Under the pieces are notes generated by a model. The model was not told the DNA's origin, ran no database searches, and was given only the letters and a program-made list of their open reading frames with translations. Positions 224 to 62,351 of a stretch of DNA of 64,000 nucleotides are shown here, in pieces; within the stretch, counting starts at the first letter, position 1; each line of letters begins with the position of its first letter. The DNA is from Candidatus Pacearchaeota archaeon (GTDB lineage Archaea; Nanobdellota; Nanobdellia; Pacearchaeales; GW2011-AR1). Location: contig JACQLK010000016.1 of NCBI GenBank assembly GCA_016204145.1, positions 9,181-73,180 of the forward strand, written 5' to 3'. The position numbers and the translations under genes are program-made.

Positions 224-952
224 TTAAATCCAGCCCTTTTTAAAAATTCCGCTGTCTTTGATTTCAAAACTCATTTCTTTAATCGGCATGCTTCTGTGCT
301 TCAGCAAAATCGCCTTTCTTCTTTTGTTTTCAAGCTTTAATTCAATTATGCATTTGCTCCAATATTTCAAAAGGTCACCGCCGACGAAGTTGACTTTTTT
401 CTTCGCGCCGCTTTTTATTTCCTCGTCGGAAAGAAATCCGGAGTAAACCTGGTTTGTTATTATCACCGGAATTTCCTGTTTCCTTGAAATTTCGGCAAGC
501 GTCCTCATTTGCTCCGCCATCTTCCAATTTGTTTCCCGAATTTTGCCGTCGTCTTCTCTTGCTTCTCCGATACTCAGGCGGTAAAGCGTCGCCATTCCGT
601 CGACGACTATTAAATTTACGTGCTCTTTTTTCAGTTTGTCGAGCAATTGAGAAAAGCATTTTTTCTGCTCGTCAAAATTCGTCGGTTGAAGAAGGAGAAT
701 GTTTTTTAAAATCTTCTCGGAATTTTCCGCAGTGATTTGTTTCACTCTTTCGACGCTGAAACCTCCCTCGCTGTCTATGAAAATTATCTTGTTTCCTTTT
801 TTCGCCTGACTGCAAGCCGCAAGAATGCAAAAATTTGTTTTCCCGCTCCCGGGAGGCCCGGCAATCATCGTGATCACGTCTGTTTCATAGCCGCCGAAAA
901 GCCACTTGTTCAAATCAAAACTTCCGGTAGAGATTTTCTCCAATTTTTCCAT
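224..952 (-). CDS. radB: RadB-like RecA-family ATPase (DNA repair/recombination)
   Basis: 242 aa starting with STGSFDLNKWLFGG..GPPGSGKT (Walker A) and LIVVDG (Walker B); short RecA fold with no N-terminal HhH domain, as in RadB. Confidence 0.6.
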   Translation of the reverse strand: MEKLEKISTGSFDLNKWLFGGYETDVITMIAGPPGSGKTNFCILAACSQAKKGNKIIFIDSEGGFSVERVKQITAENSEKILKNILLLQPTNFDEQKKCFSQLLDKLKKEHVNLIVVDGMATLYRLSIGEAREDDGKIRETNWKMAEQMRTLAEISRKQEIPVIITNQVYSGFLSDEEIKSGAKKKVNFVGGDLLKYWSKCIIELKLENKRRKAILLKHRSMPIKEMSFEIKDSGIFKKGWI

Positions 953-9481: not shown

Positions 9482-11941
9482 CTAAACCAAATTGTGCGTT
9501 GCGGTTAAATCCTTTTCAAACTTTTTTAATTTTTTCGGAATCTCGATTCCCGAAATTTCGTTTCTCAAGCTTATGCCTTTTTCCTTTTTCTCCTTCCAAA
9601 CCGCGCTGTTGAAGTTCATAAGCTCTTCCATCAAACTCAAATCTGATTTTCCCTTGTTGGATTTTGGAAATTCCGATTTAAGCAGATCGATTTTCGCCTC
9701 TTTTGCAATTACGCTTGAAAGCTGCGGAACAATGGGATAAATCAAAGTCAAAAATCTTTCAAGAAGAAAATGCAGTGCATATTTCGCCGAATCGCTTTCC
9801 TCTCTCGTGAATTTTTTGTTTTCGTTGTAAGCCCGCGATTTTATCATCTCGATGTAATTCGACGCAAAAACGTCCCATAAAAAATTTCTCAATTTTGTGG
9901 CGGGACGGTAAAAATCATACGAGCCGTAACAGCTGTCCGAAAACTCTGTCAAATCCTCAATATAATCTATGAAAAGTTTGTCAAGCTCGGCAAGTTTCGG
10001 TCTTGAATTTGGCTTTTCAAAGAGAAAAACAAATTTGGAAACATTGATTATTTTGTTTATCGTCTTCAGTTCTCCCCTTATTTTTTCCTCTGAACAGCTC
10101 AAATCCTGCTTTGACAAATCTCCCTCTGTCGCAGCCCACAACCTTATCGCCTCCGCCCCGTACTGCGAAAGAAGTTTCTGAGGGTCGACGACATTTCCCA
10201 GAGATTTTGACATTTTTCTTCCCTGCGAATCAAGAATGTGCTGATTTATCCAAACGTCCTTGAAGCACGGCTTTTTCGTCTCAAGATAGCCGCGAAGAAT
10301 CGTGTAATAAAGCCACGTCCTGACAATTTCCTTTCCCTGCGGTCTCAGCGCCGCCGGATAGGCCTTCTTGAAAAAATCATCGTCAGTTTTGTATTTCAAA
10401 ATAAAAAGTTCTGAAATCGACGAATCCATCCACGTGTCAAGAACGCGCGTCTCTCCCGTCCATTTTAATTTTTTGAAATCCTTAGATTTTTTTCCCGTAT
10501 GCTTTCCGCTTTTCCAAACTTCTGCATTTTCAGGAACACTTTCCTTCCACGGCTGATAATATTTTCCCGCAGGGGGAACGGCGACAATTTTTTCCCCTGA
10601 ACTCTCGGAATGCCAAAGAGGAATTTCCGTCGCGTAAAATCTCCTTCTTGAAATCGGCCAGTCTATTGAAACGGAATCAATCCAATCGATGAGAATTTTT
10701 CTCGATTCCTCCGGAAAAAATTTTATCTTTTTCGACATTTTTTTGACGTCGTTCTTGAATTCCAATTGCTTCAGATAAAATTCAGGCATTTCGATGAATT
10801 CTATTTCAGCTTTCGAGCGCTCGGAAATCGGCGTGCGATGCATTATTTTTTCCTGCTTTTGCAGAAAATTTTTTCCCTTGAGTTCTTCGATTATTTTCTG
10901 CCTCGCCTCTTTCACTTTCAGTCCCTTCAAAAATCCGGCATGCTCGTTCATTCTTCCGTCGGCGTTTATCGCGATTGTCGGCTTTATTTTCATATCCCTG
11001 AAAAATTGTATGTCTGATAAATCTCCGGCAGAGCACATCATTGCAAGCCCGGTTCCCTTGTCGGCCTGCGCGAGAGAATGCGCCTTTATCGGAACTTCTT
11101 TCCCAAACAAAGGAGTTATCGCAGTTTTTCCTTCAAGATGCCCGTATCTTTTGTCGTCCGGATTAAAAATAACCATGCTGCATGTGCAGATTAATTCAGG
11201 TCTTGTCGTCCCGATGACGATCCCCTCGCCGGTTTCCTTGACCTTCCATTTCACGTAGTTGAAATTTGATTCCAAATCCAGATAATCAATCTCGGAGTCC
11301 GCGACGGTTGTCTGCAATGCAGAATCCCAGTTATTTATTCTCGTGTCTTCGTAAATCAGCCCTTTTTTGTACAGCTCTATGAAAGTCGCCTGCGTTAATT
11401 TTCTGTAGTCCGGAGAATCGGTCATATAAACCGCTCCGATGTGATTCCCCTGCCTGTAAGATGTAAATGAAATCCCGAGCTTTGAAAAAGAACTCATGGT
11501 TTCTACGGAGGTTTCGTTCAAAAGCCTCTCGCAATATTTCAAAAATTCGCCCCTTGAAACTTTGAACGGACTCACTCCGAATTTTTTCTCGGCGCCTATT
11601 TCAATCGGCAAGCCGTTTCTGTCCAATCCCAACGGAAAAACCACTGAGAATCCCTTCATTCTTTTGTATCTGGCGAAAAAATCCATGTAGCAATATGTTA
11701 CCGACTGCCCGATGTGAACAGGGGCATTTACATACGGCGGCGGCGTGTCTATGGAATAAATCTTCTTCGTTTTTCCGCCAAACCTGAAAATCTCCGACTT
11801 TTCCCATCCATTTGTTATTTCTTTCTCGATATCGACGTTCCAGTTTTTTATCTTCCCGAATTCCATATCCGGTTGAGCAAAAAGATAATTATAAAGTTTG
11901 CCGATTTCAAAAATTTTAAAATTGCCGAAGAAACTGCTCAT
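9482..11941 (-). CDS. valS: class Ia aminoacyl-tRNA synthetase, most likely valyl-tRNA synthetase
   Basis: PPPYVNAPVHIGQ (HIGH-region variant like archaeal ValRS PPPTVSG.MHIGHA), KMSKSLGN motif; 819 aa; tRNA-Val gene also present in the window. Confidence 0.6.
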   Translation of the reverse strand: MSSFFGNFKIFEIGKLYNYLFAQPDMEFGKIKNWNVDIEKEITNGWEKSEIFRFGGKTKKIYSIDTPPPYVNAPVHIGQSVTYCYMDFFARYKRMKGFSVVFPLGLDRNGLPIEIGAEKKFGVSPFKVSRGEFLKYCERLLNETSVETMSSFSKLGISFTSYRQGNHIGAVYMTDSPDYRKLTQATFIELYKKGLIYEDTRINNWDSALQTTVADSEIDYLDLESNFNYVKWKVKETGEGIVIGTTRPELICTCSMVIFNPDDKRYGHLEGKTAITPLFGKEVPIKAHSLAQADKGTGLAMMCSAGDLSDIQFFRDMKIKPTIAINADGRMNEHAGFLKGLKVKEARQKIIEELKGKNFLQKQEKIMHRTPISERSKAEIEFIEMPEFYLKQLEFKNDVKKMSKKIKFFPEESRKILIDWIDSVSIDWPISRRRFYATEIPLWHSESSGEKIVAVPPAGKYYQPWKESVPENAEVWKSGKHTGKKSKDFKKLKWTGETRVLDTWMDSSISELFILKYKTDDDFFKKAYPAALRPQGKEIVRTWLYYTILRGYLETKKPCFKDVWINQHILDSQGRKMSKSLGNVVDPQKLLSQYGAEAIRLWAATEGDLSKQDLSCSEEKIRGELKTINKIINVSKFVFLFEKPNSRPKLAELDKLFIDYIEDLTEFSDSCYGSYDFYRPATKLRNFLWDVFASNYIEMIKSRAYNENKKFTREESDSAKYALHFLLERFLTLIYPIVPQLSSVIAKEAKIDLLKSEFPKSNKGKSDLSLMEELMNFNSAVWKEKKEKGISLRNEISGIEIPKKLKKFEKDLTATHNLV

Positions 11942-18717: not shown

Positions 18718-19062
18718 TTATTTTATCTTCGCCCCGACTTCGACATCCTTCTCGGGAGAAATCAAAATAACTTGCATTTCATCTTTGCTCGCCGCCGCAA
18801 GAAGCATTCCGTTGCTTTCAATTCCTTTCAACATTCGCGGAGCAAGATTCGCGACGATAATTATCTTTTTGTTTTTCAGTTCGTCTTTTGAGTAATGTTT
18901 TTTTATTCCCGCGCAAATCACGCGCTTTCCGATTTCTTTTCCCAAATCAACGCTCAGTTTGTAAAGCTTGTCCGCGCCTTCAATGTCCTCAACTTTCAAG
19001 ATTTTTCCGACTCGCAAATCCGTTTTCGCGAAGTCGTCGTATGAGATTATGGATTCGGTCAT
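18718..19062 (-). CDS. tRNA-binding protein (Trbp111/CsaA-like, stand-alone MetRS C-terminal domain)
   Basis: DLRVGKILKVEDIEGADKLYKLSVDLG..VANLAPRMLKGIESNGMLL matches Myf/tRNA-binding OB domain. Confidence 0.8.
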   Translation of the reverse strand: MTESIISYDDFAKTDLRVGKILKVEDIEGADKLYKLSVDLGKEIGKRVICAGIKKHYSKDELKNKKIIIVANLAPRMLKGIESNGMLLAAASKDEMQVILISPEKDVEVGAKIK

Positions 19063-19891: not shown

Positions 19892-22612
19892 TTACCCCAA
19901 GCTCTCCTCGATTATCTTAATCTCATCTGAAGTCAAACCGTAGAGTTTGTAAACCTCGGCGTCGATTTCATAGTCAATGTTTTTTATCTGTTGTTCCAAT
20001 CTTTCTTTTTCATTTCCGGAAACGCCGGAGTCGTGATTTTTCTTTTGAATCTCAAGCATTTCATTGACGAGGGAAATGATTTTTTGTTGTTGGGGAGGAG
20101 AAACTTTCGGAATAATTATTCTTTCAGTAACGGGATTATCAAATTGCATTGTTCTTATCGCTTTTCCAAAAATAAATCTATAGGCGTACCAATTAGTTAG
20201 TTTTGAGTTAATTATCGCAATTAAGAATTCTGAAGAAAATTTATTCTTATTTTGAAGTTGATTAATTGTATCCACAATTATATAATCATTAATTTTTAAA
20301 TCATTAGATAAAGAAGCTGTTATTTTTATATGGTCAATTGGATTCTCAATGTGTGCTACTATTCTCTGAACCAAAATAGAATTTTGTTTGATAAACGCTT
20401 TTTCATCTTTAACAACTTTTTTAGATATATACCCTTTAACATCTGAAGAAATAACATATCTTCCAATTTGCATACCTCCTAAAACCATTAAATCAGATTT
20501 TTTATCTGTAACTTCTTTTTGGTAAATAGCTCCTCGCCGATTAATAATTAAATCATTTAACGAAACCCCAGAATTTTTTATTTTTCTTCCGACGTTTAAT
20601 TCTTTATCAGAAATTCCATTCAGCAAAAATCCAAACTCTTTGAAAGTTTCTTTGTTTATCTTTCCAACACATTTAATTTCTTGGTTGTCTCTTACACAAG
20701 AATTATAAAATTTTTCACTCTTATTTTTATTATAAAAATAAATAACTTGTTCAAGTTTTACTTCTTTCCAAACTTTTCCTACGTCAACAACTTCTTTTAA
20801 ACCTTGCAAAAGTTTTTCTCTTATTTCTTCCCAAGTTGAAGAATAAACAAATGGTTTAGGAATAATAAACCCATTAATTCCTTTAGAATTTAATAAATCA
20901 ACTGCAAGAGACATAAACAAACAAGCCGTATCAGTATTTCCTAATTTAAACTTCTTTTCTAATAATTCTCTATCCTTCTCTGGCAAATCCGCACCATACG
21001 GCGGATTCCCGACGACAACGTCAAATCCTCCGTTTCTGAAAACATCAGGGAACTGCGCGTTCCAATTAAACGCCTTGTCTCCCGCTACTTTTGAATCGTC
21101 AATCAAGGAGTTTCAGTTTTTTATGTTATTTTTCAAATTAGGAAGCAAAAGCTTTCTCGTCTCCCTTGTTTCTCCTTCAAGAAGTTTCAGCAGCAAATTC
21201 AACTGCGCCAGCTCAACCGCCTTCTCGTCCAAGTCAACGCCGTAAACGCATCTTGAAAGAATTGTGATTTTTTGCGCCAAATTCAACCTGTCCTCGTAAT
21301 TTTTAAAAGTTGAATTTTTGCTTTTGTCTCCTCTCTTCATTTTTTCCTCAACAGCATCGCAAACCTCCTGAAACGCGCGAATCAAAAAACTTCCGGAGCC
21401 GCAGGCAGGGTCAACTATTCTGACTTCCAATATTTCGTCAATGGATTTATCTTTTACATATTCTCCGACAGTATTTTTGACGATGTAATCCACAATGTAA
21501 GAGGGAGTGTAGTAAATTCCCATCTTTTTTCTTTTTCCGCTTTCGGAATCCAACTTTACTCTTTGTTCTGTTCCCCTCAAAACAACGCCGAGGTATTGCT
21601 CATATATGCTCCCGAGCAAATCGCCGGGAATCTCGTCAAACATATATCGCGACTGCTTATTTTCCACGCCAAAATAAAGAATTTTTATTATTTTTTCCAA
21701 ATTCTCATCATCTAAAAAAATATTTTTCTCATCTTCAAGTATTCCCGAAGAAAATAATTTTGAATTGTATGATTTGTCAAAAATCTTGAACTGTTCATCC
21801 AATGCAGGCCACAATTTCACCTTTAATCGGCCTTCTCGTGAATCCTTGACAAGTCCAAGCAAAAAATTCTGATTCTCCAATCCCCTGTCTTCGGCGGAGC
21901 GCATAAAAATCAACCTATCAATTAAAATCTGTATCGCCTCGTCTATCTGCTCGTCTGTCAGATAATTCCTTAATTTCTTCAAATCGTTGGAGAGCAATCT
22001 TCTTATTTCAAGCAAATCGGCTAAAATGCTTTCGTCAACCGGGACAAATTGCTTTTCGTCTTTTTTTGATAAAAGTTTATTTATTTCTTGTTTTTCAAAA
22101 CTTTCCCTTGAAATAAGCCACAACTTGTCAAATTCTTTTTCAAAATCCTTAAACTCAAGCCAGAATAATAAATTCTTGTCTATGTTTTTTATATTTGAAA
22201 GCGCGTGATAAACCCTGAAATATTTAAAATTAGTAAGAACCGAAAATTTTATTTTCCTGTGGTAGGCGTAAGAAACCGCCTGTCTTCCCTCGTCTTCCGA
22301 TAAAGAAACATTTGTTTTTTTCGCCTCAACAACCAAGCTTTCCTGATTTCCGATTCTTAAAATATAATCCGCCCTTCCTTTAAGCACTCTTTTTTCTTTT
22401 GAAATATCTTCCCTATTCCAGCCCAATGCTTCAAACAGCGGCTCAATGAATTGAAATTTTATATCTTCCTCAGGCATTGAATCCAATTCGCTCTTTGATT
22501 TCAGCGAAAATTTGCGGACTATCTTTTCTACTTCTAATTTCGCTTCTTCCTTAGTTGTCATTTTATATTTTTTTGAAAAGCACCTCCGCCTTCTTAATTT
22601 TATTCGTCTCAA
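19892..22612 (-). pseudogene. Type IIG restriction-modification fusion enzyme (PD-(D/E)xK nuclease + gamma-class N6-adenine methyltransferase + TRD) interrupted by one in-frame TGA at 21113..21115
   Basis: N-terminal GRADYILRIGNQESLVVEAKK (D..E.K nuclease motif), motif I VDPACGSGSFL, then TGA, then in the same frame motif IV VVGNPPYG; listed halves 21113..22612 and 19892..21106 are separated by only two codons. Confidence 0.7.
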
Positions 22613-24557: not shown

Positions 24558-24727
24558 GCGGCTTTGGTCTAATGGCATGACGTCACCTTCCCATGGCACT
24601 TTTCACTGAAGGTGAAAAAGGCATAAGCGGAATTCGCAAGAATTCTGGCTACGAGCATTTTTTCAGAAAATGCGGAAATGATTCTCGGAAAAAGGTGGCT
24701 GCGCGGGTTCGATTCCCGCAAGCCGCA
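24558..24727 (+). tRNA. intron-containing tRNA, anticodon probably CCC (Gly); ~98-nt intron at canonical 37/38 position (approx 24594..24691)
   Basis: acceptor GCGGCTT/AAGCCGC, T-arm GCGGG-TTCGATT-CCCGC, anticodon stem TCACC/GGTGG only pairs across a ~98-nt insert; intron contains cGGAATTCgcaaGAATTCtg hairpin with GNRA loop. Confidence 0.6.
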
Positions 24728-27758: not shown

Positions 27759-29471
27759 ATGCTCTATCGCAAACTCGCCGAATTTTACAAAGAAGCGTCG
27801 GAAAATCCGAGCCGCCTGAAAAAAACCGAAATCCTTGCAAAATTCCTCGGAGAAATTCATGAATCAGACAAGGAGGTTTTGTATCTTCTTCTCGGGGATA
27901 TTTACCCCGAATACAGCGAGAAAAAAATCGGAATAAGCAGTCAGCTTGCGATAAAAGCGATTTCAAAATCAATCGGCACGGAAAACTCGGAAGTTGTTCG
28001 CGAATGGAAAAAACTCGGCGACCTCGGACTCGTGATTGAGATGTTGAAGAAAAAAAAGAGGCAAGCGACTCTTGGCAAAAGCGATTTGACGACGCAAAAA
28101 GTTCTTGAAAACTTCAGGAAACTCCCGGAATTGGAGGGGAAAGGAACTGTTGAAAAAAAACTTTCTTTGATTGTTGAACTGTTGACTTCCGCCTCTGACA
28201 TTGAGGCGCTCTATCTCGTAAGGACTTTGATTGGCGATTTGAGAATCGGATTGAAAGAAAGCACTATCAAGGAAGCGATTGCTTCGGCGTTTTTCAGCAG
28301 CGACAAGGAGTCGGCGAAAAAAATACAGGACGCCATCGACCGCTCAAATGACATTGTGAAAGTTTTCGAAATGGCAAAGCGCGGAAAGTTGAATGAAATA
28401 GAAAACGTCTCGCTCGAAATCGGCAAGCCGATAAAAGTCATGCTTGCGCAAAAAGCGAAAACAATCGAAGAGGGATTTGAAGCCGTGGGAAAGCCGTGCG
28501 CGGTTGAATACAAATACGACGGGTTCAGAATGCTGATTCACAAAAAAGGCGACGACGTGATTCTTTTTACAAGGCGCTTGGAAAATGTCACAAAACAGTT
28601 TCCCGAAGTCGTCGATTACGTGAAAAAATATGTCGGCGGAAAATCGTTCATCCTCGATTCCGAAGCGGTCGGTTTCGACAAAAAAACAAAAGAATACAAA
28701 CCGTTTCAGGAAATAAGCCAGAGAATAAGAAGAAAATACGACATTGAAAAACTCCGCGAAGAGCTTCCTGTTGAGGTAAATGTTTTCGACATGATATATT
28801 ACGAAGGAAAGTCGCTTCTGAACGAGCCGTTTGAAAAAAGAACCGCGCTGATAAAAAAAATTCTGAAAGATCAAAGATACAAAATAATACGCGCGAAACA
28901 ATTGATTACCGGCGACGAAAAAAAAGCAAAGGAATTTTACAAACAGGCCCTGAAGGACAGACAGGAAGGCGTGATGATGAAAAACCTCGGCTCAATTTAT
29001 CAGCCGGGAAGCCGCGTCGGATTTATGCTGAAAATAAAGCCCGCGGAAAATGATTTGGATTTGGCGATTGTCGGCGCGGAATTTGGCGCCGGAAAAAGAA
29101 GCGGCTGGCTCTCAAGTTTCATTCTCGCGTGCAAGGATGAAAAATCCGGAAAATTTTTGGAAATAGGAAAAGTCGGCACCGGAATAAAGGAATTGGCTGA
29201 GTCCGAAGGCACGTCTTTCGAAGAGCTGACAAAAATGATAAAGCCGCTGATTGAAAAAGAGGACGGAAAAAGCGTGAAGATAAAACCAAAGATTGTCGTC
29301 GCTGTGACTTATCAGGAAATCCAGCGCTCGCCGACGTACAATTCGGGATTTGCGTTGAGGTTCCCCCGCTTTACCGCCCTCAGGGTTGACAAGCCGCTTT
29401 CTGAAATCACGACGCTGCGGGAAGTTGAAAAGGACTACGAAAAGCAAAAAAGAAATTTCAGATACGGATAA
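27759..29471 (+). CDS. lig: ATP-dependent DNA ligase
   Basis: adenylation motif EYKYDGFR (KxDGxR), 570 aa. Confidence 0.9.
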   Translation: MLYRKLAEFYKEASENPSRLKKTEILAKFLGEIHESDKEVLYLLLGDIYPEYSEKKIGISSQLAIKAISKSIGTENSEVVREWKKLGDLGLVIEMLKKKKRQATLGKSDLTTQKVLENFRKLPELEGKGTVEKKLSLIVELLTSASDIEALYLVRTLIGDLRIGLKESTIKEAIASAFFSSDKESAKKIQDAIDRSNDIVKVFEMAKRGKLNEIENVSLEIGKPIKVMLAQKAKTIEEGFEAVGKPCAVEYKYDGFRMLIHKKGDDVILFTRRLENVTKQFPEVVDYVKKYVGGKSFILDSEAVGFDKKTKEYKPFQEISQRIRRKYDIEKLREELPVEVNVFDMIYYEGKSLLNEPFEKRTALIKKILKDQRYKIIRAKQLITGDEKKAKEFYKQALKDRQEGVMMKNLGSIYQPGSRVGFMLKIKPAENDLDLAIVGAEFGAGKRSGWLSSFILACKDEKSGKFLEIGKVGTGIKELAESEGTSFEELTKMIKPLIEKEDGKSVKIKPKIVVAVTYQEIQRSPTYNSGFALRFPRFTALRVDKPLSEITTLREVEKDYEKQKRNFRYG

Positions 29472-29679: not shown

Positions 29680-30909
29680 ATGAATGAAATGAAAAGAGGT
29701 TTGAACGTTCTCGTTTTAGTTGCATTTTTGCTCGCGTTTCAAATTGTTCCCGTTTCCGCAGACCCTTCTTTTTCCCCGTCATCATTTTCAATCAGCCCGG
29801 GACAAAATTCATCTTTTACAATTACGATAACAAATCCAGACACTTACGCGGACACGGGATTGGCAACAAACATTACAAGAGTAAACATTACTCTTCCTTC
29901 AAGCGTTGTTTTTGTCAGCGGGACGGAAAGCACCGACTCCGCCTCGGCATTTTCAGCGACTGCAAATGTTTTGTCATGGGACAATTCTTCTTATGTCATC
30001 GGCTCATCGACAGGGGGAGACAACGTGAAAACGTTTTCATTTGTCGCAAACGCAACAACTTTGGGAATCCTCGCAATTGTCGTGAGAACAATGAACTCGA
30101 CGACGACAACGACAAAAAATATTTCCCTCACTGTCTCGGACTCTGTCGCTCCGCAAGTAACGCTCGTCAGCCCGGAGAACAACAATGAAGATGCCGACGG
30201 GGTTCTCGTATTCAGCTGCAACGCAACAGACAACCTCGCGCTAAACTCAATGAAACTTGCAATTTACTTCAACGACAGCGAAACATACGGCAACAGCATA
30301 AGCGTAAACGGAACGGCAAGCAATCAGTCAAGTTGGGATTACACATTTAACTCAAACGGAGAATACAAATGGAACTGCTTCGCAAACGACACCGCGGGAA
30401 ATTCCGCATGGGCTTCAAACAGAACGATAAAAATAGACGCGCTTTCATTGTCGGCGCAGGCATGCGCCTCAAACTGGACATGCGCTAACTGGAGCGTTTG
30501 TTCAAACGGAACTCAAACAAGAACTTGCACTGATGCAAACTCCTGCGGAAACGTAACTGGAAAGCCGGCTGAAACGCAAACGTGCACTCCCCCTTGCGCT
30601 TCGTCGTGGAAATGCGCCGATTGGACCCCCGCAAAATGTCCAAAAGATGGAAAACAAACAAGAACTTGCACGGATGCAAACGCGTGCGGCGACTTGTCGG
30701 GAAAACCGTCTGAATCCCTGACTTGCGAATACAAAAGTTCAATTGGAATTTTTGTCGCCGCGGGAATAATCCTTGCTCTGATAGCGGGCAGTGTCGGAGC
30801 GTTTTTTTATCTGAGGAAAAACAAAGTCGATGAATTGTATCCGCAATCAACTGAAAACGCAAACCAAAATTATCCGCAAAATCAGGGATATAATTTCGAA
30901 TATTCTTGA
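29680..30909 (+). CDS. surface/cell-envelope protein: signal peptide, N-glycosylation sequon-rich region, two tandem 6-Cys modules, C-terminal TM anchor
   Basis: signal MNEMKRGLNVLVLVAFLLAFQIVPVSA; tandem CASNWTCANWSVCSNGTQTRTCTDANSCG / CASSWKCADWTPAKCPKDGKQTRTCTDANACG; C-terminal IGIFVAAGIILALIAGSVGAFFYLRKN. Confidence 0.6.
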   Translation: MNEMKRGLNVLVLVAFLLAFQIVPVSADPSFSPSSFSISPGQNSSFTITITNPDTYADTGLATNITRVNITLPSSVVFVSGTESTDSASAFSATANVLSWDNSSYVIGSSTGGDNVKTFSFVANATTLGILAIVVRTMNSTTTTTKNISLTVSDSVAPQVTLVSPENNNEDADGVLVFSCNATDNLALNSMKLAIYFNDSETYGNSISVNGTASNQSSWDYTFNSNGEYKWNCFANDTAGNSAWASNRTIKIDALSLSAQACASNWTCANWSVCSNGTQTRTCTDANSCGNVTGKPAETQTCTPPCASSWKCADWTPAKCPKDGKQTRTCTDANACGDLSGKPSESLTCEYKSSIGIFVAAGIILALIAGSVGAFFYLRKNKVDELYPQSTENANQNYPQNQGYNFEYS

Positions 30910-31141: not shown

Positions 31142-31708
31142 ATGTCCGGAAAAAATTCCGCAAGCGCGTACCAAATCCAAAACATCGTCGCCACAACGTC
31201 CCTTGAAAAACCGGTTCCTCTTGTAAAACTCGCAAGAACCCAGCCAAACACGGAGTACAATCCAAAGACATTTCCCGGTTTGGTTTTAAGGGTAAAGGAG
31301 CCGAAATCGGCGGTTCTCGTATTCTCATCCGGAAACCTTGTCTGCACCGGAACAAAATCAATCGCCCAAGTGAAACAGGTCATTGACGTTGTCATAAAGC
31401 AATTGAGAAAAATAAACGTGAACGTCACCATAAAACCGAAGATAACGGTGCAAAACATCGTCGCTTCCGGAACGATAAATTTGAAATTGAACCTTAATTT
31501 TCTTGCGATTGAAATGGAAAACACGGAATACGAGCCGGAACAATTTCCGGGATTGGTTTACAAGCTGAACGAGCCGAACGCGACTTTTCTTTTGTTCAGC
31601 AACGGAAAACTCGTTTGCACCGGAACAAAAAACCGCCAACAATTGGAAGACAGCATGGACCAGCTTTTGAAAAACGTCAAAACCGCGCTGAAAAATTACA
31701 AGGGATGA
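31142..31708 (+). CDS. tbp: TATA-box binding protein
   Basis: two direct repeats each with NIVAT/S..L and LVCTGTK signature; ends with TGA stop. Confidence 0.95.
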   Translation: MSGKNSASAYQIQNIVATTSLEKPVPLVKLARTQPNTEYNPKTFPGLVLRVKEPKSAVLVFSSGNLVCTGTKSIAQVKQVIDVVIKQLRKINVNVTIKPKITVQNIVASGTINLKLNLNFLAIEMENTEYEPEQFPGLVYKLNEPNATFLLFSNGKLVCTGTKNRQQLEDSMDQLLKNVKTALKNYKG

Positions 31709-54537: not shown

Positions 54538-55095
54538 TTGATTTTTATGATTACTTACAACGAAATTTACGAAGCAGTGAGAAAAGAGCGCGCCGAGGAG
54601 TTGCAGCCGCTGCCGAAAAATTTCCTTGACGAAGTGTCAGTATACCTGAAGGAAAAAAAAGAGTTCTCTTCGAAAAATATCGACGATTTCTCCGATTCGG
54701 CGATGAAGGCGAAAAAACAGCTTGAAAATGCAAGGACTTTGTTTAAGGAATTAATTTTGAGGAGGAGAAAAAAAATACTTAATCTTCTTCTTATTGCAAC
54801 AGAGACGGGAATTTCAAAAAAGGATTCTGAAAACATGCTTGAATTTGAGAAGACGATGTTTGAAAATCTCATGAAATCCGTCGATTCGACCGAAAGTCAG
54901 GTAAACAGCTTATTCAACGTAAAAACAGAAGAAAGGATTGTCTCCGGAAAAACAATCGCGTTTAAGGAAGACGTCGACGAGTTTTTTGACATGGAAGGAA
55001 AACTCATAGGCCCGTTTAAAAAAGGCGAGAAAGCCGAGTTGGATGAGGAAATCGCAAAAATCCTCGTTGAAAGTGAAAAGGCCGAAAGATTGTGA
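54538..55095 (+). CDS. GINS subunit Gins51-like (Sld5/Psf1 family)
   Basis: helical N-terminus (YNEIYEAVRKERAEELQPLPKNFLDEV) + small C-terminal beta domain, 185 aa; located 2 kb upstream of mcm. Confidence 0.5.
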   Translation: MIFMITYNEIYEAVRKERAEELQPLPKNFLDEVSVYLKEKKEFSSKNIDDFSDSAMKAKKQLENARTLFKELILRRRKKILNLLLIATETGISKKDSENMLEFEKTMFENLMKSVDSTESQVNSLFNVKTEERIVSGKTIAFKEDVDEFFDMEGKLIGPFKKGEKAELDEEIAKILVESEKAERL

Positions 55096-55134
55096 ATATT
55101 TTTAAACTTCTTTTTCCAGTTCATTTGGTATAAG

Positions 55135-56964
55135 ATGAAAAAAGAAATTGCGCTGATTTTTGTTTGCGTTTTGCTCGCTTCCGTAATTTCCGCTTCGTTA
55201 ATTTCCGCGGATTTTTTCGGAAGCTGGTTTGCAAAATCAACCGGAAACGCCGTGGCTGCAAAGTGCGTCGATTCGGACGGCGGGAAGGACTATTACAAAA
55301 AAGGAACAACATCCGGAATTGACGCGAAGACGAAAAAGCAAACAAGTCAAGTTGATAAATGCTCAAATTCCAAAACTCTTGTTGAATTTTTCTGCGATGC
55401 GAATAATAGGGTCGCGAGCGCTTCCGCTTCATGCAAAAAAGGATGCGGCTCCGGAGCGTGCGCTGAAATCGCCCCTGCTGCAGCTCCGTCGAAAAAATCA
55501 AGCGCGGCGCAAACGGTCGATAAATCCGGAAGTTTGATGTTTACAACAACTCATTCCGGAATAGGGGACATGTACACATATTATCTGATTTATGACAACG
55601 CAAATTACATTATTCAATCGGGCGATTTCCTCGAATATGACATTTACTGCGACCCTTCAAACAACGATTGCACCGGCGGAATAGAAATAGAGGGAATTTA
55701 CCCTTCGGCATGGGTCGGAAGAAATTTGCGTTTAGTCGACCAAAACCGGTTATCAAATGCGTACGGCAATATTTCCATGTATGCAAGCGGAAAATGGTAT
55801 CATCGAAGAATTAACTTGTCGAGTGCTGTCGGCAAAACTGTAAAAGAAGTCAGCGTAGTCGAAGAAAGCGACAGGGACGGAAAAAGGGATTACTATTACA
55901 GAAATATTGCAATCACAAACGGCGGAATTCTGAAGGTTCCCTTTTACAAAGGAAAAAATGTTCAATCAAGCGCGTTGAACTACCAATCAAAAGCGAGCAG
56001 GTATTCCGTTGCTGCAATCGGCGGAAGTTCATTTGAGATTCAAAAAACATGTCGGCAAATAATAACTCTGACATACCAACTGTCAAAGAGCGAGTGTTCT
56101 CCCGGAGACATAATAAGCGACTTGCAAACCCACACTCAATGCGACCATTATGTCAACGTTCCTTACGGCGGAAAAGTGTGTTATTCGTGGCGCAGCTACC
56201 ATAATTACAATTGCATAAGAAATACTCAAATATCTTGCTCTGCAAACGCCGCCTGTCCTGCGGGGACAACTGAAATAACTTCAGAATATTGCGGCGCGTC
56301 CATTGTGGCAATTGGCGGGGAAATAGGATTCACTCCTTCAAGAATATGGATTTCCGACGACAATAGCGGATGGCAGAAAACCCGTTCAACAATCTTTTCT
56401 TCATATCCCGACGGGGCGAGGATATCTGCAACAGGAGCCGACTGGAATATCGCTCGTCAGGTCTCGTTCTGGGGAAAAGACAATTATCTTGTGGGGATAA
56501 AATACAAGTGGGTAAGCGGCGGCTCGTCGCTTCCGGACCAGCTTTATTACTCGACAAAAAGTCACGGGGACTCGATAAATTTCAGGCAACCTTTCGGAAA
56601 ATGGGAAACGGACGGAAACTGGCATGTTAAAATTCTCGATATGAGAACCCTGGCTGCGGGGGGAAACGACTGGATAAACGGTGAAATCACAAGATTAAGA
56701 TTTGACTTTACTGAAAATGCAGATACCGTTATGGAAATACAATATATTGCAATTGGAAAATATCCGAATACAAGCATATGCGCGCCCGCAAACAAATGCA
56801 TCGGCAATTCAGGAGAGTATTGCAATGACAAAAATGCAATCGCAAGCGTCTCTTCTTTCCAGGAAACATGCAACGACGGAAGGGACGATAACTGCAACGG
56901 ACAAGTGGATGAAGATTGTCCGTCTCTCGAGGAGGACAATCCGAACGACGGCGGAGGAGAATAA
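55135..56964 (+). CDS. large secreted Cys-rich protein
   Basis: signal peptide MKKEIALIFVCVLLASVISASLISA, N-terminal CVDSDGGKDYY motif, C-terminal CNDGRDDNCNGQVDEDC acidic Cys motif, 609 aa. Confidence 0.55.
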   Translation: MKKEIALIFVCVLLASVISASLISADFFGSWFAKSTGNAVAAKCVDSDGGKDYYKKGTTSGIDAKTKKQTSQVDKCSNSKTLVEFFCDANNRVASASASCKKGCGSGACAEIAPAAAPSKKSSAAQTVDKSGSLMFTTTHSGIGDMYTYYLIYDNANYIIQSGDFLEYDIYCDPSNNDCTGGIEIEGIYPSAWVGRNLRLVDQNRLSNAYGNISMYASGKWYHRRINLSSAVGKTVKEVSVVEESDRDGKRDYYYRNIAITNGGILKVPFYKGKNVQSSALNYQSKASRYSVAAIGGSSFEIQKTCRQIITLTYQLSKSECSPGDIISDLQTHTQCDHYVNVPYGGKVCYSWRSYHNYNCIRNTQISCSANAACPAGTTEITSEYCGASIVAIGGEIGFTPSRIWISDDNSGWQKTRSTIFSSYPDGARISATGADWNIARQVSFWGKDNYLVGIKYKWVSGGSSLPDQLYYSTKSHGDSINFRQPFGKWETDGNWHVKILDMRTLAAGGNDWINGEITRLRFDFTENADTVMEIQYIAIGKYPNTSICAPANKCIGNSGEYCNDKNAIASVSSFQETCNDGRDDNCNGQVDEDCPSLEEDNPNDGGGE

Positions 56965-57031
56965 CTTCTCGTCTGATTTTTACCGATTCTTTCACAATAA
57001 ACTATAAAAACGCCCTCCTTTTTCCATAAAC

Positions 57032-59044
57032 ATGGACAAGCTGGGGAAGGAGGAAATAGTTCTTGAAACGAAAAATTTCTTTGACTCTTACAAGAAAGAA
57101 ATCGGCGATTCTCTTAGAAAAGGAAACAACGTCATTTATCTGGATTTTATGAAGCTGTCTCAGCATTCAAACAAGCTCTCCGACGAGCTTCTTTCAAAGC
57201 CCGAGGAAACTCTTGGATTTATGGAAATGGCGATTGAAGAAGTCGGCCTGGTAAACAATGTCCGCGTCCGATTGAACAATCTTCCCGACAGCCAGCAACT
57301 CAAAGTGAGAAACATTCGCTCAAAACATCTCAACGAAATGATAGTCATAGAAGGGATAATAAGGCAGGCAAGCGATGTTCGTCCGCAAGTCGTAAATTCC
57401 AAATTCGAGTGCCCGAGTTGCGGGACAATTATTTCTGTTTTGCAAATTGAAAAAAAATTCCACGAACCGTCGCGCTGTTCCTGCGGAAGAAGAGGCGGGT
57501 TCCGTTTGATTAGCAAAGACATGGTCGACACGCAAAGAATAGTAATTGAAGAATCGCCGGAATCGTTGTCGGGAGGAGAACAGCCGAAGAGAATAAATGT
57601 TTTTGTAAAAGAGGATTTGGTCGAGCCGAGAATGGAGGAAAAAACAACTCCCGGAAGCAGGGTGAAAATTATCGGCGTCTTGAAAGAAGTTCCGGTTCCG
57701 TTGAACACCGGCGGCGTGTCAACAAGATTTGAATTGGCTATTGAAACAAATAATATCATCCCGATGGAGGAAACATTTGAGGAATTGAATATAAGCGAGG
57801 AAGATGAAAAGCAAATTCTTGAGATGTCAAAAGATCCCGGAATCTTCGACAAGCTCGCGCAAAGCATAACTCCGAGCGTTTGGGGTTACGACGAAATAAA
57901 AAAATCCCTTGTCTTGCAATTGTTCGGCGGAGTTAAAAAAGTGCACGCAGACGGACAGAAAAGCAGGGGCGACTTGCATATTCTTTTAATCGGAGACCCG
58001 GGAGTTGCAAAATCGGTAACATTGGGATTCATGGCGCAAATTTCTCCGAAAGGAAGATATGTCGTCGGCAAAAGCGCTTCGGGAGCGGGTTTGACGGCAA
58101 CGGTTGTAAGGGACGAATATTTAAAAGGGTGGAGTTTGGAAGCGGGCGCAATGGTTCTCGCTAACAAGGGACTGGTTTGCATTGACGAGTTGGAAAAAAT
58201 GGATCCTCAGGACAGAAGCTCGATGCACGAAGCGATGGAACAACAAACGATTACAATTTCAAAAGCGAACGTGCAGGCGACGTTAAGGGCGGAAACGTCT
58301 GTTCTCGCCGCGGCAAATCCAAAATTCGGAAGGTTTGACCCTTATCAGTCCGTGGCCCAGCAAATTGACTTGCCTCCGACGCTGATAAATCGTTTTGATG
58401 TAATTTTCACATTAAGGGACATTCCTGACAAGGACAAGGACAGAAAAATAGCGACGCACGTTTTGCACGAGCATATAAAAGAGGGAAAAGACATGGCCAT
58501 TCCGAGGGAACTGTTCAGAAAATACGTCGCGTATGCAAAACAAAAAGTTCATCCAAAACTTTCAAAAGAGGCGGCGGAAGAAATTGAGAATTTCTACGTT
58601 GATTTGAGAAACCGCCCTGTGTCGTCGGAAAGCGCATTGAAGCCGATTCCGATTTCAGCAAGGCAGTTGCAGGCGCTGATTCGCATGTCGGAAGCGTCGG
58701 CAAAAATGCGGCTAAATCCGACGGTGTCGAGAGACGACGCGAAAAAAGCTATTGAAATAATGAAGCATTATCTGATGCAAGTCGGATTTGATTACGAATC
58801 GAACACTTTTGACATAGACAAGATTTACACGGGAATGACCGCTTCAAGAAGAAACAAGGTGCTTATTGTCAGAGAGGCGATAAATTCGCTGAAGGAAAAA
58901 GTCGGCGAGCTTATTCCCGTCGAGGAAATAGAAAAGGAACTCGAAGGAAAATTGACAAAAGACGAAATTGAAGCGTCGATTTTTGAATTGATAAAAAACT
59001 CTGTGATTTTCGAGCCGAGGAGGGGATACGTGCAGAAAATATAA
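57032..59044 (+). CDS. mcm: MCM replicative helicase
   Basis: Zn finger CPSCG..CSCG, Walker A GDPGVAKS, Walker B CIDELEKM, arginine finger region, C-terminal wH. Confidence 0.95.
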   Translation: MDKLGKEEIVLETKNFFDSYKKEIGDSLRKGNNVIYLDFMKLSQHSNKLSDELLSKPEETLGFMEMAIEEVGLVNNVRVRLNNLPDSQQLKVRNIRSKHLNEMIVIEGIIRQASDVRPQVVNSKFECPSCGTIISVLQIEKKFHEPSRCSCGRRGGFRLISKDMVDTQRIVIEESPESLSGGEQPKRINVFVKEDLVEPRMEEKTTPGSRVKIIGVLKEVPVPLNTGGVSTRFELAIETNNIIPMEETFEELNISEEDEKQILEMSKDPGIFDKLAQSITPSVWGYDEIKKSLVLQLFGGVKKVHADGQKSRGDLHILLIGDPGVAKSVTLGFMAQISPKGRYVVGKSASGAGLTATVVRDEYLKGWSLEAGAMVLANKGLVCIDELEKMDPQDRSSMHEAMEQQTITISKANVQATLRAETSVLAAANPKFGRFDPYQSVAQQIDLPPTLINRFDVIFTLRDIPDKDKDRKIATHVLHEHIKEGKDMAIPRELFRKYVAYAKQKVHPKLSKEAAEEIENFYVDLRNRPVSSESALKPIPISARQLQALIRMSEASAKMRLNPTVSRDDAKKAIEIMKHYLMQVGFDYESNTFDIDKIYTGMTASRRNKVLIVREAINSLKEKVGELIPVEEIEKELEGKLTKDEIEASIFELIKNSVIFEPRRGYVQKI

Positions 59045-59045
59045 A

Positions 59046-59585
59046 ATGGCAAAAATAGCTTTTATCGGAACTCATGGGACGGGAAAAACAACTTTGGTCA
59101 ATGAGATTGTCTTTAATCTGAAAAAAAGAGGCGTTAACGCCCTTGCTTTTGAAGAAATCGCAAGAAGTTGCCCGTTGCCAATTAATGAAAATGCAGTAAG
59201 AGAAACACAATTGTGGATTATTGCAAGACAAATCTCGACGGAAATTGAAAAAGAAAGGAATTATGAATTGGTTGTCTGCGACAGAAGTATCTTGGACACA
59301 TATTGCTACCATGAATATTTCTTCGGGAGAGAAAAGAGCTGGGAACTGTTAATCCAGTCTTATATGAAAAGTTATGATAAGCTAATTTTTGTTCCAATAA
59401 AAAATGGTTTTTTGAATGAAGATGGTGTCAGATCAACAAATAAAAATTTCCAAACAAGGATAGATAAGATAATAAAAGGGAGATTATCTGGTTTTGGACT
59501 GGAATATGATTTATTGGAAAATTCAACTATCCAAAATATTTGTAATGCTTATGCAAATAAAATAAATTTGGCCCGTAAAAAATAA
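59046..59585 (+). CDS. P-loop NTPase (AAA_28/NadR-kinase-like), paralog of 46379..46903
   Basis: Walker A IGTHGTGKTT, 179 aa, 2 nt after mcm stop. Confidence 0.5.
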   Translation: MAKIAFIGTHGTGKTTLVNEIVFNLKKRGVNALAFEEIARSCPLPINENAVRETQLWIIARQISTEIEKERNYELVVCDRSILDTYCYHEYFFGREKSWELLIQSYMKSYDKLIFVPIKNGFLNEDGVRSTNKNFQTRIDKIIKGRLSGFGLEYDLLENSTIQNICNAYANKINLARKK

Positions 59586-59602
59586 ATAAGTAAAAGCAGA
59601 AA

Positions 59603-60217
59603 ATGCCAGACGAACAATTCAAGCGAAACATTGCATTCAAGATGAGAATCGGCGAGATATTAGTCGGAAAACCGATAATGGACGGAGAGCGATTTGGAAA
59701 TCTGGAAATCAACGGAAACAAAATCGTGAGAGTGAACGTCGTCGGAAGCATCGTTGACAAATATGAAAGCAGCGGAGAGAAAAAATACGTCTTCCTTACG
59801 CTTGACGACGGCTCGGGACAGATAAAATTAAAGTCCTTCGGAGACGATGCGCAAAAATCCTTAGAAATTCAGCAAGGAGAAACCGTCGCTGTCATCGGCT
59901 TGCTGAGATTTTTCAACAACGAAATTTACATTTCTCCCGAAATAATAAAAGAACAGGATCCAAAATATCTTCTTGTAAGAAAACTTGAACTTGACAATGC
60001 GCCGAAAATCCAGAATAATATTCAAACTCTGATTTCGCAAAGGGAAAAAATAATAGAATTGATAAAAAATTCCGAAAGCCAAGGCGGCATCGACATTGAA
60101 AAAATAAATTCCGTTTCCGGAATTTCCGCGGAAAATGCCGCGGCGGAAATTCAAAAACTTCTCGAAGAAGGCGTGATTTTCGAGCCGCGCCCGGGAAAAG
60201 TGAGATGGTTGGGGTGA
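59603..60217 (+). CDS. OB-fold protein with C-terminal winged helix (RPA2/RPA32-like ssDNA-binding candidate)
   Basis: beta-rich OB-like region (IVRVNVVGSIVDKYESSGEKKYVFLTLDDGSGQIKL) and C-terminal LLEEGVIFEPRPGKVRWL resembling the MCM C-terminal LIKNSVIFEPRRGYVQKI. Confidence 0.45.
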   Translation: MPDEQFKRNIAFKMRIGEILVGKPIMDGERFGNLEINGNKIVRVNVVGSIVDKYESSGEKKYVFLTLDDGSGQIKLKSFGDDAQKSLEIQQGETVAVIGLLRFFNNEIYISPEIIKEQDPKYLLVRKLELDNAPKIQNNIQTLISQREKIIELIKNSESQGGIDIEKINSVSGISAENAAAEIQKLLEEGVIFEPRPGKVRWLG

Positions 60218-61937: not shown

Positions 61938-62351
61938 ATGGAATCATACGAAGAAATGCTCAACGAAGCATTTGAAAAAGTAAAGCGTCCGGAAAATTCC
62001 AACGGAGAAAGGTCTGAAATCCCGAAGATAGAAGGGCATATAGAAGGGAAAAAAACAATTCTGACAAACTTTTTTCAAATCGCGGAGCATTTGAGAAGAA
62101 ACCCAGAGCATTTCCAAAAATTTATTTTAAGGGAATTGGCGGCGTCGGGGCAAAAAGAAGGAGACCGGCTGGTTTTGAATATGAAAGTGCCGAGCGAAAA
62201 GATAAATCAAAAAATAGAGCAATACGCGAAAGAATTCGTCATTTGCAGGGAATGCGGAAAGCCCGACACCGAATTGATAAAACAAGACCGGCTTTTGTTT
62301 ATGCATTGTCTTGCGTGCGGCGCGAAACATTCTGTCAGAAGCAAAATATAA
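61938..62351 (+). CDS. translation initiation factor aIF2 beta subunit
   Basis: central helical domain + C-terminal zinc ribbon CRECGKPDT...CLACGA. Confidence 0.8.
   Translation: MESYEEMLNEAFEKVKRPENSNGERSEIPKIEGHIEGKKTILTNFFQIAEHLRRNPEHFQKFILRELAASGQKEGDRLVLNMKVPSEKINQKIEQYAKEFVICRECGKPDTELIKQDRLLFMHCLACGAKHSVRSKI

Follow-up and report, generated by a model that had tools for sequence, protein, structure and literature searches.

The DNA analysed here is a 64,000-nucleotide (nt) stretch, called the window below, from a Candidatus Pacearchaeota archaeon, a member of the DPANN, in which five consecutive open reading frames (ORFs) lie on the plus strand at 54538..60217. The last of these genes, rpa2 (59603..60217, plus strand), encodes a protein of 204 amino acids (aa) with an OB fold and, at the C-terminus, a winged helix (wH). 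The protein is a member of the archaeal Rpa2/RPA32-like family and very probably the Nanoarchaeial Rpa2. We place it in this family because its testable defining features, a single OB fold of the DBD-D/OB-3 type, a post-OB helix and a wH of the RPA32 type, are all found in it. A preliminary description of the window had delimited the same five ORFs, labelled four of the products Gins51-like, MCM, P-loop and OB proteins, and put forward the OB-wH protein as a candidate RPA2-like or MCM-interacting factor. The ORFs are confirmed, Pfam supports the labels, and phmmer, a wH profile and Foldseek with a predicted structure agree on the RPA2-like assignment.

Sequence and fold of Rpa2

A phmmer search of the PDB with the window Rpa2 retrieved Pyrococcus abyssi RPA32 as the best sequence match (E-value 7.8e-6, residues 5-191 aligned), together with yeast Rfa2 (2.7e-5). 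In this alignment the N-terminus of Rpa2 pairs with the segment KRMPATRLYIKDILEG of P. abyssi RPA32. A profile of the C-terminal ~70 residues of 47 diverse family members led to the wH of the same protein (9f27_A, 5.4e-10). The sole Pfam match above threshold is PF01336, 'tRNA_anti-codon' (9.4e-10, residues 44-112), which corresponds to the OB fold; RPA_C, Stn1 (7e-4), RMI2 (0.004) and MCM_WH_arc were matched below threshold. Across the family, RPA_C matches 34 of the 47 members, with a best E-value of 3.1e-8.

The AlphaFold2 (AF2) model of Rpa2, calculated with 34 homologues, has a mean predicted local distance difference test (pLDDT) score of 83 and an OB - helix - linker - wH layout. It begins with a short N-terminal strand and a helix. 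The OB barrel, delimited by the AF2 strands and PF01336, spans residues ~23-118 (59669..59956, plus strand) and is followed by a helix of residues 121-132 (59963..59998, plus strand; pLDDT 80-90) at the position of the RPA32 trimerisation helix. Residues 136-143 form a disordered linker to the C-terminal wH (domain 143-202; 60029..60214, plus strand), which is modelled as three helices and a β-hairpin (residues 192-202). The comparison with RPA32 structures that the preliminary description had called for was made with Foldseek on this model: the top PDB matches are human STN1 (6w6w_C, 1.7e-11), P. abyssi RPA32 (5e-11) and human RPA32, with E-values from 1.7e-11 to 1e-8. The OB fold superimposes on that of RPA32 with a TM-score (TMt) of 0.75-0.84 and a root-mean-square deviation of 2.3-3 Å. 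The eukaryotic RPA32 and STN1 proteins share the OB(DBD-D)-helix-wH arrangement (Foldseek E-values from 1e-11 to 1e-6); the N-terminal phosphorylation tail of eukaryotic RPA32 is absent from the window protein.

With human STN1 heading the Foldseek ranking and Pfam returning weak matches to Stn1 and RMI2, the protein could be imagined as a Stn1/CST-like or RMI2-like subunit acting in end protection or recombination rather than as a general RPA. Both Pfam matches are however below their gathering scores (19.1 bits against 21.5 for Stn1), STN1 carries two C-terminal wH domains where the Rpa2 model has one, and it is archaeal RPA32 that is closest in sequence. The OB folds of Stn1, RMI2 and RPA32 are known structural relatives, so that cross-matches between them are expected. 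Circular chromosomes are presumed for these archaea, which also counts against a role in end protection or recombination. We regard such a role as very improbable.

The fold and motifs of Rpa2 agree closely with those of the P. abyssi and P. furiosus RPA32 structures (8AAJ_B, 8OEJ_B, 9F27), which have the same N-terminal helix-hairpin, single OB fold, trimerisation-type helix, flexible linker and C-terminal wH; P. abyssi RPA32 ranks second only to human STN1 in fold. The motifs KR..A....I.DIL.G, DDG(S/T)G and, in the wing, EG.I(F/Y)EP..G are common to P. abyssi RPA32 and the window protein. The latter is shorter (204 aa, against 268-272 aa in the two Pyrococcus proteins), with a much reduced helix-turn-helix and acidic linker joining the helix to the wH, and its wing reads EPRPGK instead of the EPETGY of P. 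abyssi. An OB fold joined to an RPA32/STN1-related C-terminal wH is also the arrangement of the archaeal RPA2-like or Rpap proteins, such as M. jannaschii MJ_1654 and H. volcanii Rpap1/3. The Rpap-type proteins are presumably those grouped under COG3390. This archaeal OB-wH family was described earlier (Berthon 2008, PMC2643942; MacNeill 2021, PMC8329085), it is widespread (PMC8329085), and for its P. abyssi member a structural characterisation is available (PMC10122647, PMC11686378). The NeqSSB-like protein of N. equitans has 243 aa, with an OB fold at residues 71-145 (PMC4431734); judged by these published lengths, its post-OB portion is compatible with an Rpa2-like layout.

Conservation among the relatives of Rpa2 is concentrated in several segments. 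The N-terminal motif FKRNIAxKxRIGxIL lies ahead of the OB fold, and K7, R8, A11, K13, R43, N45 and D68-D69-G70-S71 are invariant, as are Y122, L123, R126 and E129 of the post-OB helix, the DDGSG motif and the FEPRPG of the wing. The tail, ...EEG(I/V)IFEPRPGK(V/I)RWLG, is almost unchanged in 34 relatives. We found 2840 homologues, many of which are named 'RPA family protein' by JGI, and the NCBI entry identical to the window protein reads 'OB-fold nucleic acid binding domain-containing protein [Candidatus Pacearchaeota archaeon]'. When 1.84 billion cluster representatives were searched with a profile, 1755 clusters reached E<=1e-3 and 1276 reached E<=1e-10, and the full-length matches have the near-universal ending ...EGEI(F/Y)EP(R/K)PG..(K/R).L.

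Relationship between the winged helices of Rpa2 and MCM

The MCM helicase encoded upstream of rpa2 also ends in a winged helix (residues ~609-670; 58856..59041, plus strand; MCM_WH_arc at 609-667, E 6.4e-4), whose last residues are VIFEPRRGYVQKI. A pairwise BLASTP alignment of the Rpa2 and MCM tails gives 11 identities over 21 positions (E 0.007). Profile alignment with hhalign, in which 81 Pacearchaeal Rpa2 wH sequences were set against 74 MCM wH sequences from the same genomes, yields a probability of 94.7% and an E-value of 6.4e-8 and covers 55 columns, which is the entire domain, with 35% identity. As judged from these alignments, the likeness of the two tails is beyond chance, and the resemblance that had been pointed out in the preliminary description is thereby upheld.

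A chance or compositional match between the tails would leave a generic OB protein with no part in replication, such as one that binds tRNA or is associated with a nuclease. Such a reading could appeal to PF01336 as the one Pfam family above threshold, to the generic NCBI label and to the shortness of the pairwise match, but the profile-profile alignment extends over the full wH, the full-length window protein matches RPA32 in both sequence and fold, and the replication-gene context described below is conserved. This reading, which we would hardly have credited, is refuted by the RPA32 matches in sequence and fold and by the wH profile alignments.

The likeness is not confined to this genome. 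In the PDB ranking obtained with the 47-member Rpa2 wH profile, P. abyssi RPA32, whose tail is LLAQGEIYEPETGYYKLL, is followed by the MCM of M. thermautotrophicus (Mth; 2MA3, 3e-6) and an archaeal MCM (8X7T_D, 3.7e-6), and further down by RPC6 (1e-3), the MCM wH of S. solfataricus (Sso; 2M45, 3.6e-3) and the wH of human RPA32 (3.8e-3). The match to human RPA32 is thus weaker than those to the first two MCM domains and about equal to that to Sso MCM. MCM_WH_arc is the second commonest Pfam match on the Rpa2 family (23 of the 47 members). Against the archaeal MCM wH family PF21120, Rpa2 proteins score 13.9-17.9 bits with a cutoff of 26.1; with an OB protein as its host, the Rpa2 domain is homologous to this family and not a member of it. 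The MCM domains of PF21120 (2MA3 from Mth, 2M45 from Sso) have the same helix order and the same hairpin motif, G.(I/V)(F/Y)EP..G, as the Rpa2 wH, and differ in being carried by an AAA+ helicase. According to work cited in PMC11686378, ATPase activity is regulated by the MCM wH, which also binds Orc1. An alignment that sets the Mth MCM wH beside archaeal RPA2-like wH domains was published earlier (MacNeill 2021, Fig. 3C; PMC8329085).

The tail likeness is best read as shared descent of two replisomal wH domains that are close relatives, and not as a lineage-specific mimic. The preliminary description had held that the Rpa2 wH mimics the MCM C-terminus; the Mth and Sso MCM domains are matched by the family profile as well, relatedness is a general property of the wH domains of archaeal Rpa2 and MCM, and 'mimicry' is the wrong word for it. 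The Rpa2 family, its wH and the likeness of this wH to that of MCM are all already known.

Gene order around mcm and rpa2

We examined the surroundings of rpa2 in 80 species-representative loci from relatives whose Rpa2 is 55-65% identical to that of the window, and in a more distant sample of loci (L086-L090 and L093-L095) labelled Woesearchaeota, Nanoarchaeia or Pacearchaeota, whose Rpa2 is 27-42% identical. A same-strand mcm lies upstream of rpa2 in 73 of the 80 representatives, and in three of the remaining seven the contig has no room for it. The gap between the two genes does not exceed 200 nt in 41 loci; it measures 200-700 nt in 27 others and more than that in five. A same-strand eIF2beta gene is located downstream of rpa2 in about 67 of the 80 loci, and a DNA ligase gene precedes mcm in at least 28. 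Among the distant relatives, mcm is immediately upstream of rpa2 in six of seven Woesearchaeota/Nanoarchaeia contexts. The co-occurrence of the OB-wH gene with mcm in other DPANN genomes, which the preliminary description had suggested looking for, is therefore observed in both samples.

The distant loci are compact. The mcm gene abuts or overlaps rpa2 in L086, L087, L089/L090, L093 (Woesearchaeota CP070803.1), L094 and L095, and the stop and start codons of the two genes overlap or lie 1 nt apart across Pacearchaeota, Woesearchaeota and other Nanoarchaeia. The eIF2beta gene directly abuts or overlaps rpa2 in L086, L088-L090 and L093-L095; the L087 contig stops just after rpa2. TBP is upstream of mcm wherever the contig reaches far enough (L089, L093-L095). 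DUF424, eIF1A and a PNO1-like KH protein are encoded downstream in the majority of these loci, with RIO1 also present in L089 and L094. The conserved unit in Nanoarchaeia is (ligase)-TBP-mcm-rpa2-eIF2beta. In L088 (234-1866) the order is TBP-rpa2-eIF2beta-DUF424, TBP being followed by rpa2 without an intervening mcm, and the mcm-rpa2 linkage is thus not universal in the Rpa2 family.

A linkage of MCM with aIF2beta was already noted in other archaea by Berthon et al. 2008 (PMC2643942), in the form MCM-(Gins23)-aIF2beta in Thermococcales, M. kandleri and M. thermautotrophicus. The Nanoarchaeial array extends this linkage of replication and translation genes: mcm and the aIF2 beta gene are likewise joined in one orientation, whereas mcm is preceded by TBP and separated from eIF2beta by rpa2, and the array lacks Gins23. 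The partner of rpa2 differs as well. Genes of the rpa2 type are in tandem with rpa1-type genes in Halobacteria, Methanosarcinales, Thermoplasmatales and Thermococcales (PMC8329085, PMC2643942), the Pyrococcus gene being part of an rpa41-rpa14-rpa32 cluster, whereas in Nanoarchaeia, as in the window, rpa2 goes with mcm. By our literature searches, the mcm-rpa2-eIF2beta operon of Nanoarchaeia and the variable gene slot described below appear to be new contextual details.

In the window the array is broken. The ligase (27759..29471) and TBP (31142..31708) genes are found 25 kb upstream of mcm, and the place just 5' of mcm is occupied by the genes for a GINS subunit and a 609-aa surface protein. 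The ligase and TBP genes directly precede mcm in most relatives, unlike the window, in which the two are themselves split by a gene for a 409-aa secreted Cys-rich protein (29680..30909). On the other side, three minus-strand genes separate rpa2 from the aIF2/eIF2 beta gene (61938..62351, plus strand), which was identified from the Pfam eIF-5_eIF-2B match on the identical gene in locus L001. The ancestral ligase-TBP-mcm-rpa2 array is rearranged here, with surface-protein genes at both breakpoints. A candidate TATA box, TATAAAAA (57003..57010, plus strand), was read by eye ~26 nt upstream of the mcm ATG; mcm, the P-loop gene and rpa2 may have a promoter of their own, which would give a leaderless transcript.

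The window mcm gene (57032..59044, plus strand) encodes a 670-aa replicative helicase that matches Pfam MCM PF00493 (1.9e-90, 302 bits), MCM_OB, MCM_lid, MCM_N and, weakly, MCM_WH_arc. The NCBIfam model gives 4.7e-215 and 716 bits, and the protein has the N-terminal domain, OB fold with Zn motif, AAA+ P-loop, lid and wH of the family. It contains no intein. The mcm gene of L094 (2601-5999) bears one (Pfam Intein_splicing) and has a 1132-aa product; mcm is ~3.0-3.4 kb long in this locus and in L006, L015, L024, L049, L054, L070, L072, L075 and L081.

Between mcm and rpa2, the window has a gene for a 179-aa P-loop protein (59046..59585, plus strand) that starts 1 nt past the mcm stop codon and leaves a 17-nt spacer before rpa2. 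The protein matches Pfam AAA_28 (6.1e-17, 62.8 bits with a cutoff of 27), and sub-threshold matches to dTMP kinase and NadR kinase point to a small protein like a nucleotide or nucleoside kinase. An AAA_28 homologue occupies this slot in only seven of the 80 relatives. In the closest relative, whose Rpa2 is 83% identical, a HIT-family gene is found there with 1-nt spacers, and elsewhere the slot contains MazG, an NT5C deoxyribonucleotidase, an HD phosphohydrolase, an S-adenosylmethionine methyltransferase, small ORFs of no assigned family or nothing. This mcm-rpa2 slot is a hot spot at which accessory genes are interchangeable, and the P-loop gene is no conserved part of the module. Besides the window, examples of the slot are seen in L091 (2055-2504), L027, L022 (HIT), L014, L080 and L068; its genes are often 1 nt from their neighbours, and several encode nucleotide-pool enzymes.

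The first of the five ORFs (54538..55095, plus strand) encodes a GINS protein of 185 aa from a TTG start, or 182 aa from the ATG at 54547. It matches Gins51_C at residues 140-184 (33.4 bits with a cutoff of 27), with a weak Sld5 helical domain ahead of this B domain (17.4 bits, residues 10-119), and scores 23.7 bits against the NCBIfam Gins23 model, whose threshold is 120. From the Pfam matches it is predicted to be of the Gins51 (GINS15) type, with a helical A domain followed by a small B domain. Its sequence gave no meaningful match in the PDB. The second ORF (55135..56964, plus strand) encodes the secreted Cys-rich surface protein of 609 aa, with an N-terminal signal-like segment and a Cys-rich C-terminus by sequence and a weak MopE motif in Pfam. 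Residues 421-541 of this protein resemble the siphophage baseplate protein 'Megatron' (8gtc_M, E 3.8e-9), which suggests a shared carbohydrate- or cell-surface-binding module. The 609-aa gene is a passenger outside the replication module.

A tblastn search of the 80 related loci gave no homologue of either the GINS gene or the 609-aa gene, even with E<1 allowed, and the adjacency of GINS and mcm is local and specific to this lineage. Of the 'replication gene cluster' of the preliminary description, the mcm-rpa2 pair is conserved; the GINS and 609-aa genes are absent near mcm in the 80 relatives and the P-loop gene is interchangeable, so that these three do not belong to the conserved unit.

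Three further features of the window lie outside this region. At 24558..24727 (plus strand) an Rfam tRNA match covering the full model spans 170 nt (45.4 bits) and is not reported by ARAGORN; it is probably an intron-containing archaeal tRNA. At 19892..22561 (minus strand) a 482-aa protein with HSDR_N, MmeI_N and N6-methylase domains is followed by a continuing ORF of 340 aa; together they resemble a type IIG/IIL-like restriction-modification system that is split or consists of two genes. A 242-aa Rad51/RecA-family ATPase without the N-terminal DNA-binding domain, of RadB or short-RadA type, is encoded at 224..952 (minus strand) and adds a further gene of DNA metabolism to the window.

Partners and possible role of Rpa2

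Several observations weigh against the assignment to Rpa2, or at least against a role identical to that in P. abyssi. The RPA_C score of the window protein, 18.7 bits, is below the gathering score of 22.6. In other archaea rpa2 usually lies beside rpa1 (PMC2643942, PMC8329085), which is not the case here. Pfam searches of ~45 of the 76 window ORFs revealed no Rpa1-type gene (OB fold with Zn-finger) and no Rpa3-type gene, a CxxC...CxxC screen of all 76 ORFs revealed no Rpa1-type gene, and a hidden Markov model restricted to the OB fold found no Rpa1 or Rpa3 among 3005 ORFs from 906 kb of related DNA. With neither gene found in the window or near the other loci, a heteromeric RPA context is unproven. 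In the wing of P. abyssi Rpa2, E261 and Y264 touch PolD, and E261 also contacts PriSL (PMC11686378); their counterparts here are the invariant R and the mostly conserved K of FEPRPGK, and partner specificity may thus differ from that in P. abyssi.

Other searches around rpa2 gave the same picture. A phmmer search with Rpa2 found no second OB protein among the 76 window ORFs, and across more than 90 loci no Rpa1 or Rpa3 gene was seen at distances of up to ~6-10 kb from rpa2. A weak OB candidate at 18718..19062 was rejected as an RPA partner, its domain being tRNA_bind (Trbp111-like). A conserved slot gene acting as Rpa3 was also rejected, given the heterogeneity of the inserted ORFs. In L003, from one Pacearchaeota lineage, a 212-aa ORF (10590-11228, plus strand) without a Pfam match shares 38 nt with the 3' end of rpa2, which lies on the same strand; it was dismissed as a conserved Rpa2 partner for lack of a homologue in the window or the other 80 loci. 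Literature searches on the RPA content of DPANN or Pacearchaeota returned nothing specific.

If Rpa2 works as its P. abyssi counterpart does, its OB fold and conserved basic N-terminal helix-hairpin would bind the single-stranded DNA (ssDNA) that the helicase leaves exposed behind it. In isolation, P. abyssi Rpa2 binds ssDNA, which is contacted by the α1-β1 hairpin, and its wH binds primase (PMC10122647) and PolD (PMC11686378). By analogy, the flexibly tethered C-terminal wH of the window protein would recruit replisome enzymes. From P. abyssi and eukaryotic RPA (PMC10122647), we infer that the post-OB helix serves oligomerisation, either with partners of the Rpa1/Rpa3 type or with itself. The rpa2 gene would be transcribed together with mcm from a promoter upstream of mcm, and with the frequent translational coupling of the two genes in relatives the helicase and Rpa2 would be made together.

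The same gene order can be read in another way, in which the protein is a dedicated accessory factor of MCM that operates without Rpa1 or Rpa3, is produced in stoichiometric amounts with MCM, uses its MCM-like wH to bind the helicase or a partner that both share, and handles the exiting ssDNA, as a minimal helicase-tethered single-stranded DNA-binding protein (SSB). The deep conservation of mcm-rpa2 with overlapping or 1-nt junctions from Pacearchaeota to other Nanoarchaeia speaks for it, as does the failure to find an Rpa1- or Rpa3-like gene nearby in any locus. Outside RPA, the Rpa2 wH has its closest relative in the archaeal MCM wH, the organism's own MCM has the wing FEPRRGY and thereby shares FEPR.G with Rpa2, unlike the EPETGY of P. 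abyssi, and the isolated P. abyssi protein can bind ssDNA alone. Gene order is however no proof of contact: the array also includes TBP and eIF2beta, which are not replisome components, MCM-aIF2beta linkage exists without rpa2 in other archaea (PMC2643942), and L088 has TBP-rpa2-eIF2beta without mcm. The conserved post-OB helix suggests a conventional oligomerisation core, and the Rpa1/Rpa3 searches covered the window and the DNA flanking rpa2. We consider a dedicated accessory factor unlikely. It is similarly doubtful, if conceivable, that Rpa2 of Nanoarchaeia as a whole has become uncoupled from Rpa1 and Rpa3, to serve as a minimal SSB and recruitment factor that is coupled to the helicase and co-translated with MCM, with an FEPR.G wing that might share a partner with the MCM wH.

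With the assignment to the Rpa2/RPA32-like family, a protein that has a generic NCBI label and is present in thousands of DPANN assemblies receives a specific annotation. If the tight coupling of mcm and rpa2 stems from a physical or regulatory link, the handover of ssDNA from the replicative helicase to RPA could be studied in these minimal genomes as a simple system. Should Rpa2 in fact act as a minimal SSB, it would represent a stripped-down replisome solution in the reduced genomes of DPANN archaea.

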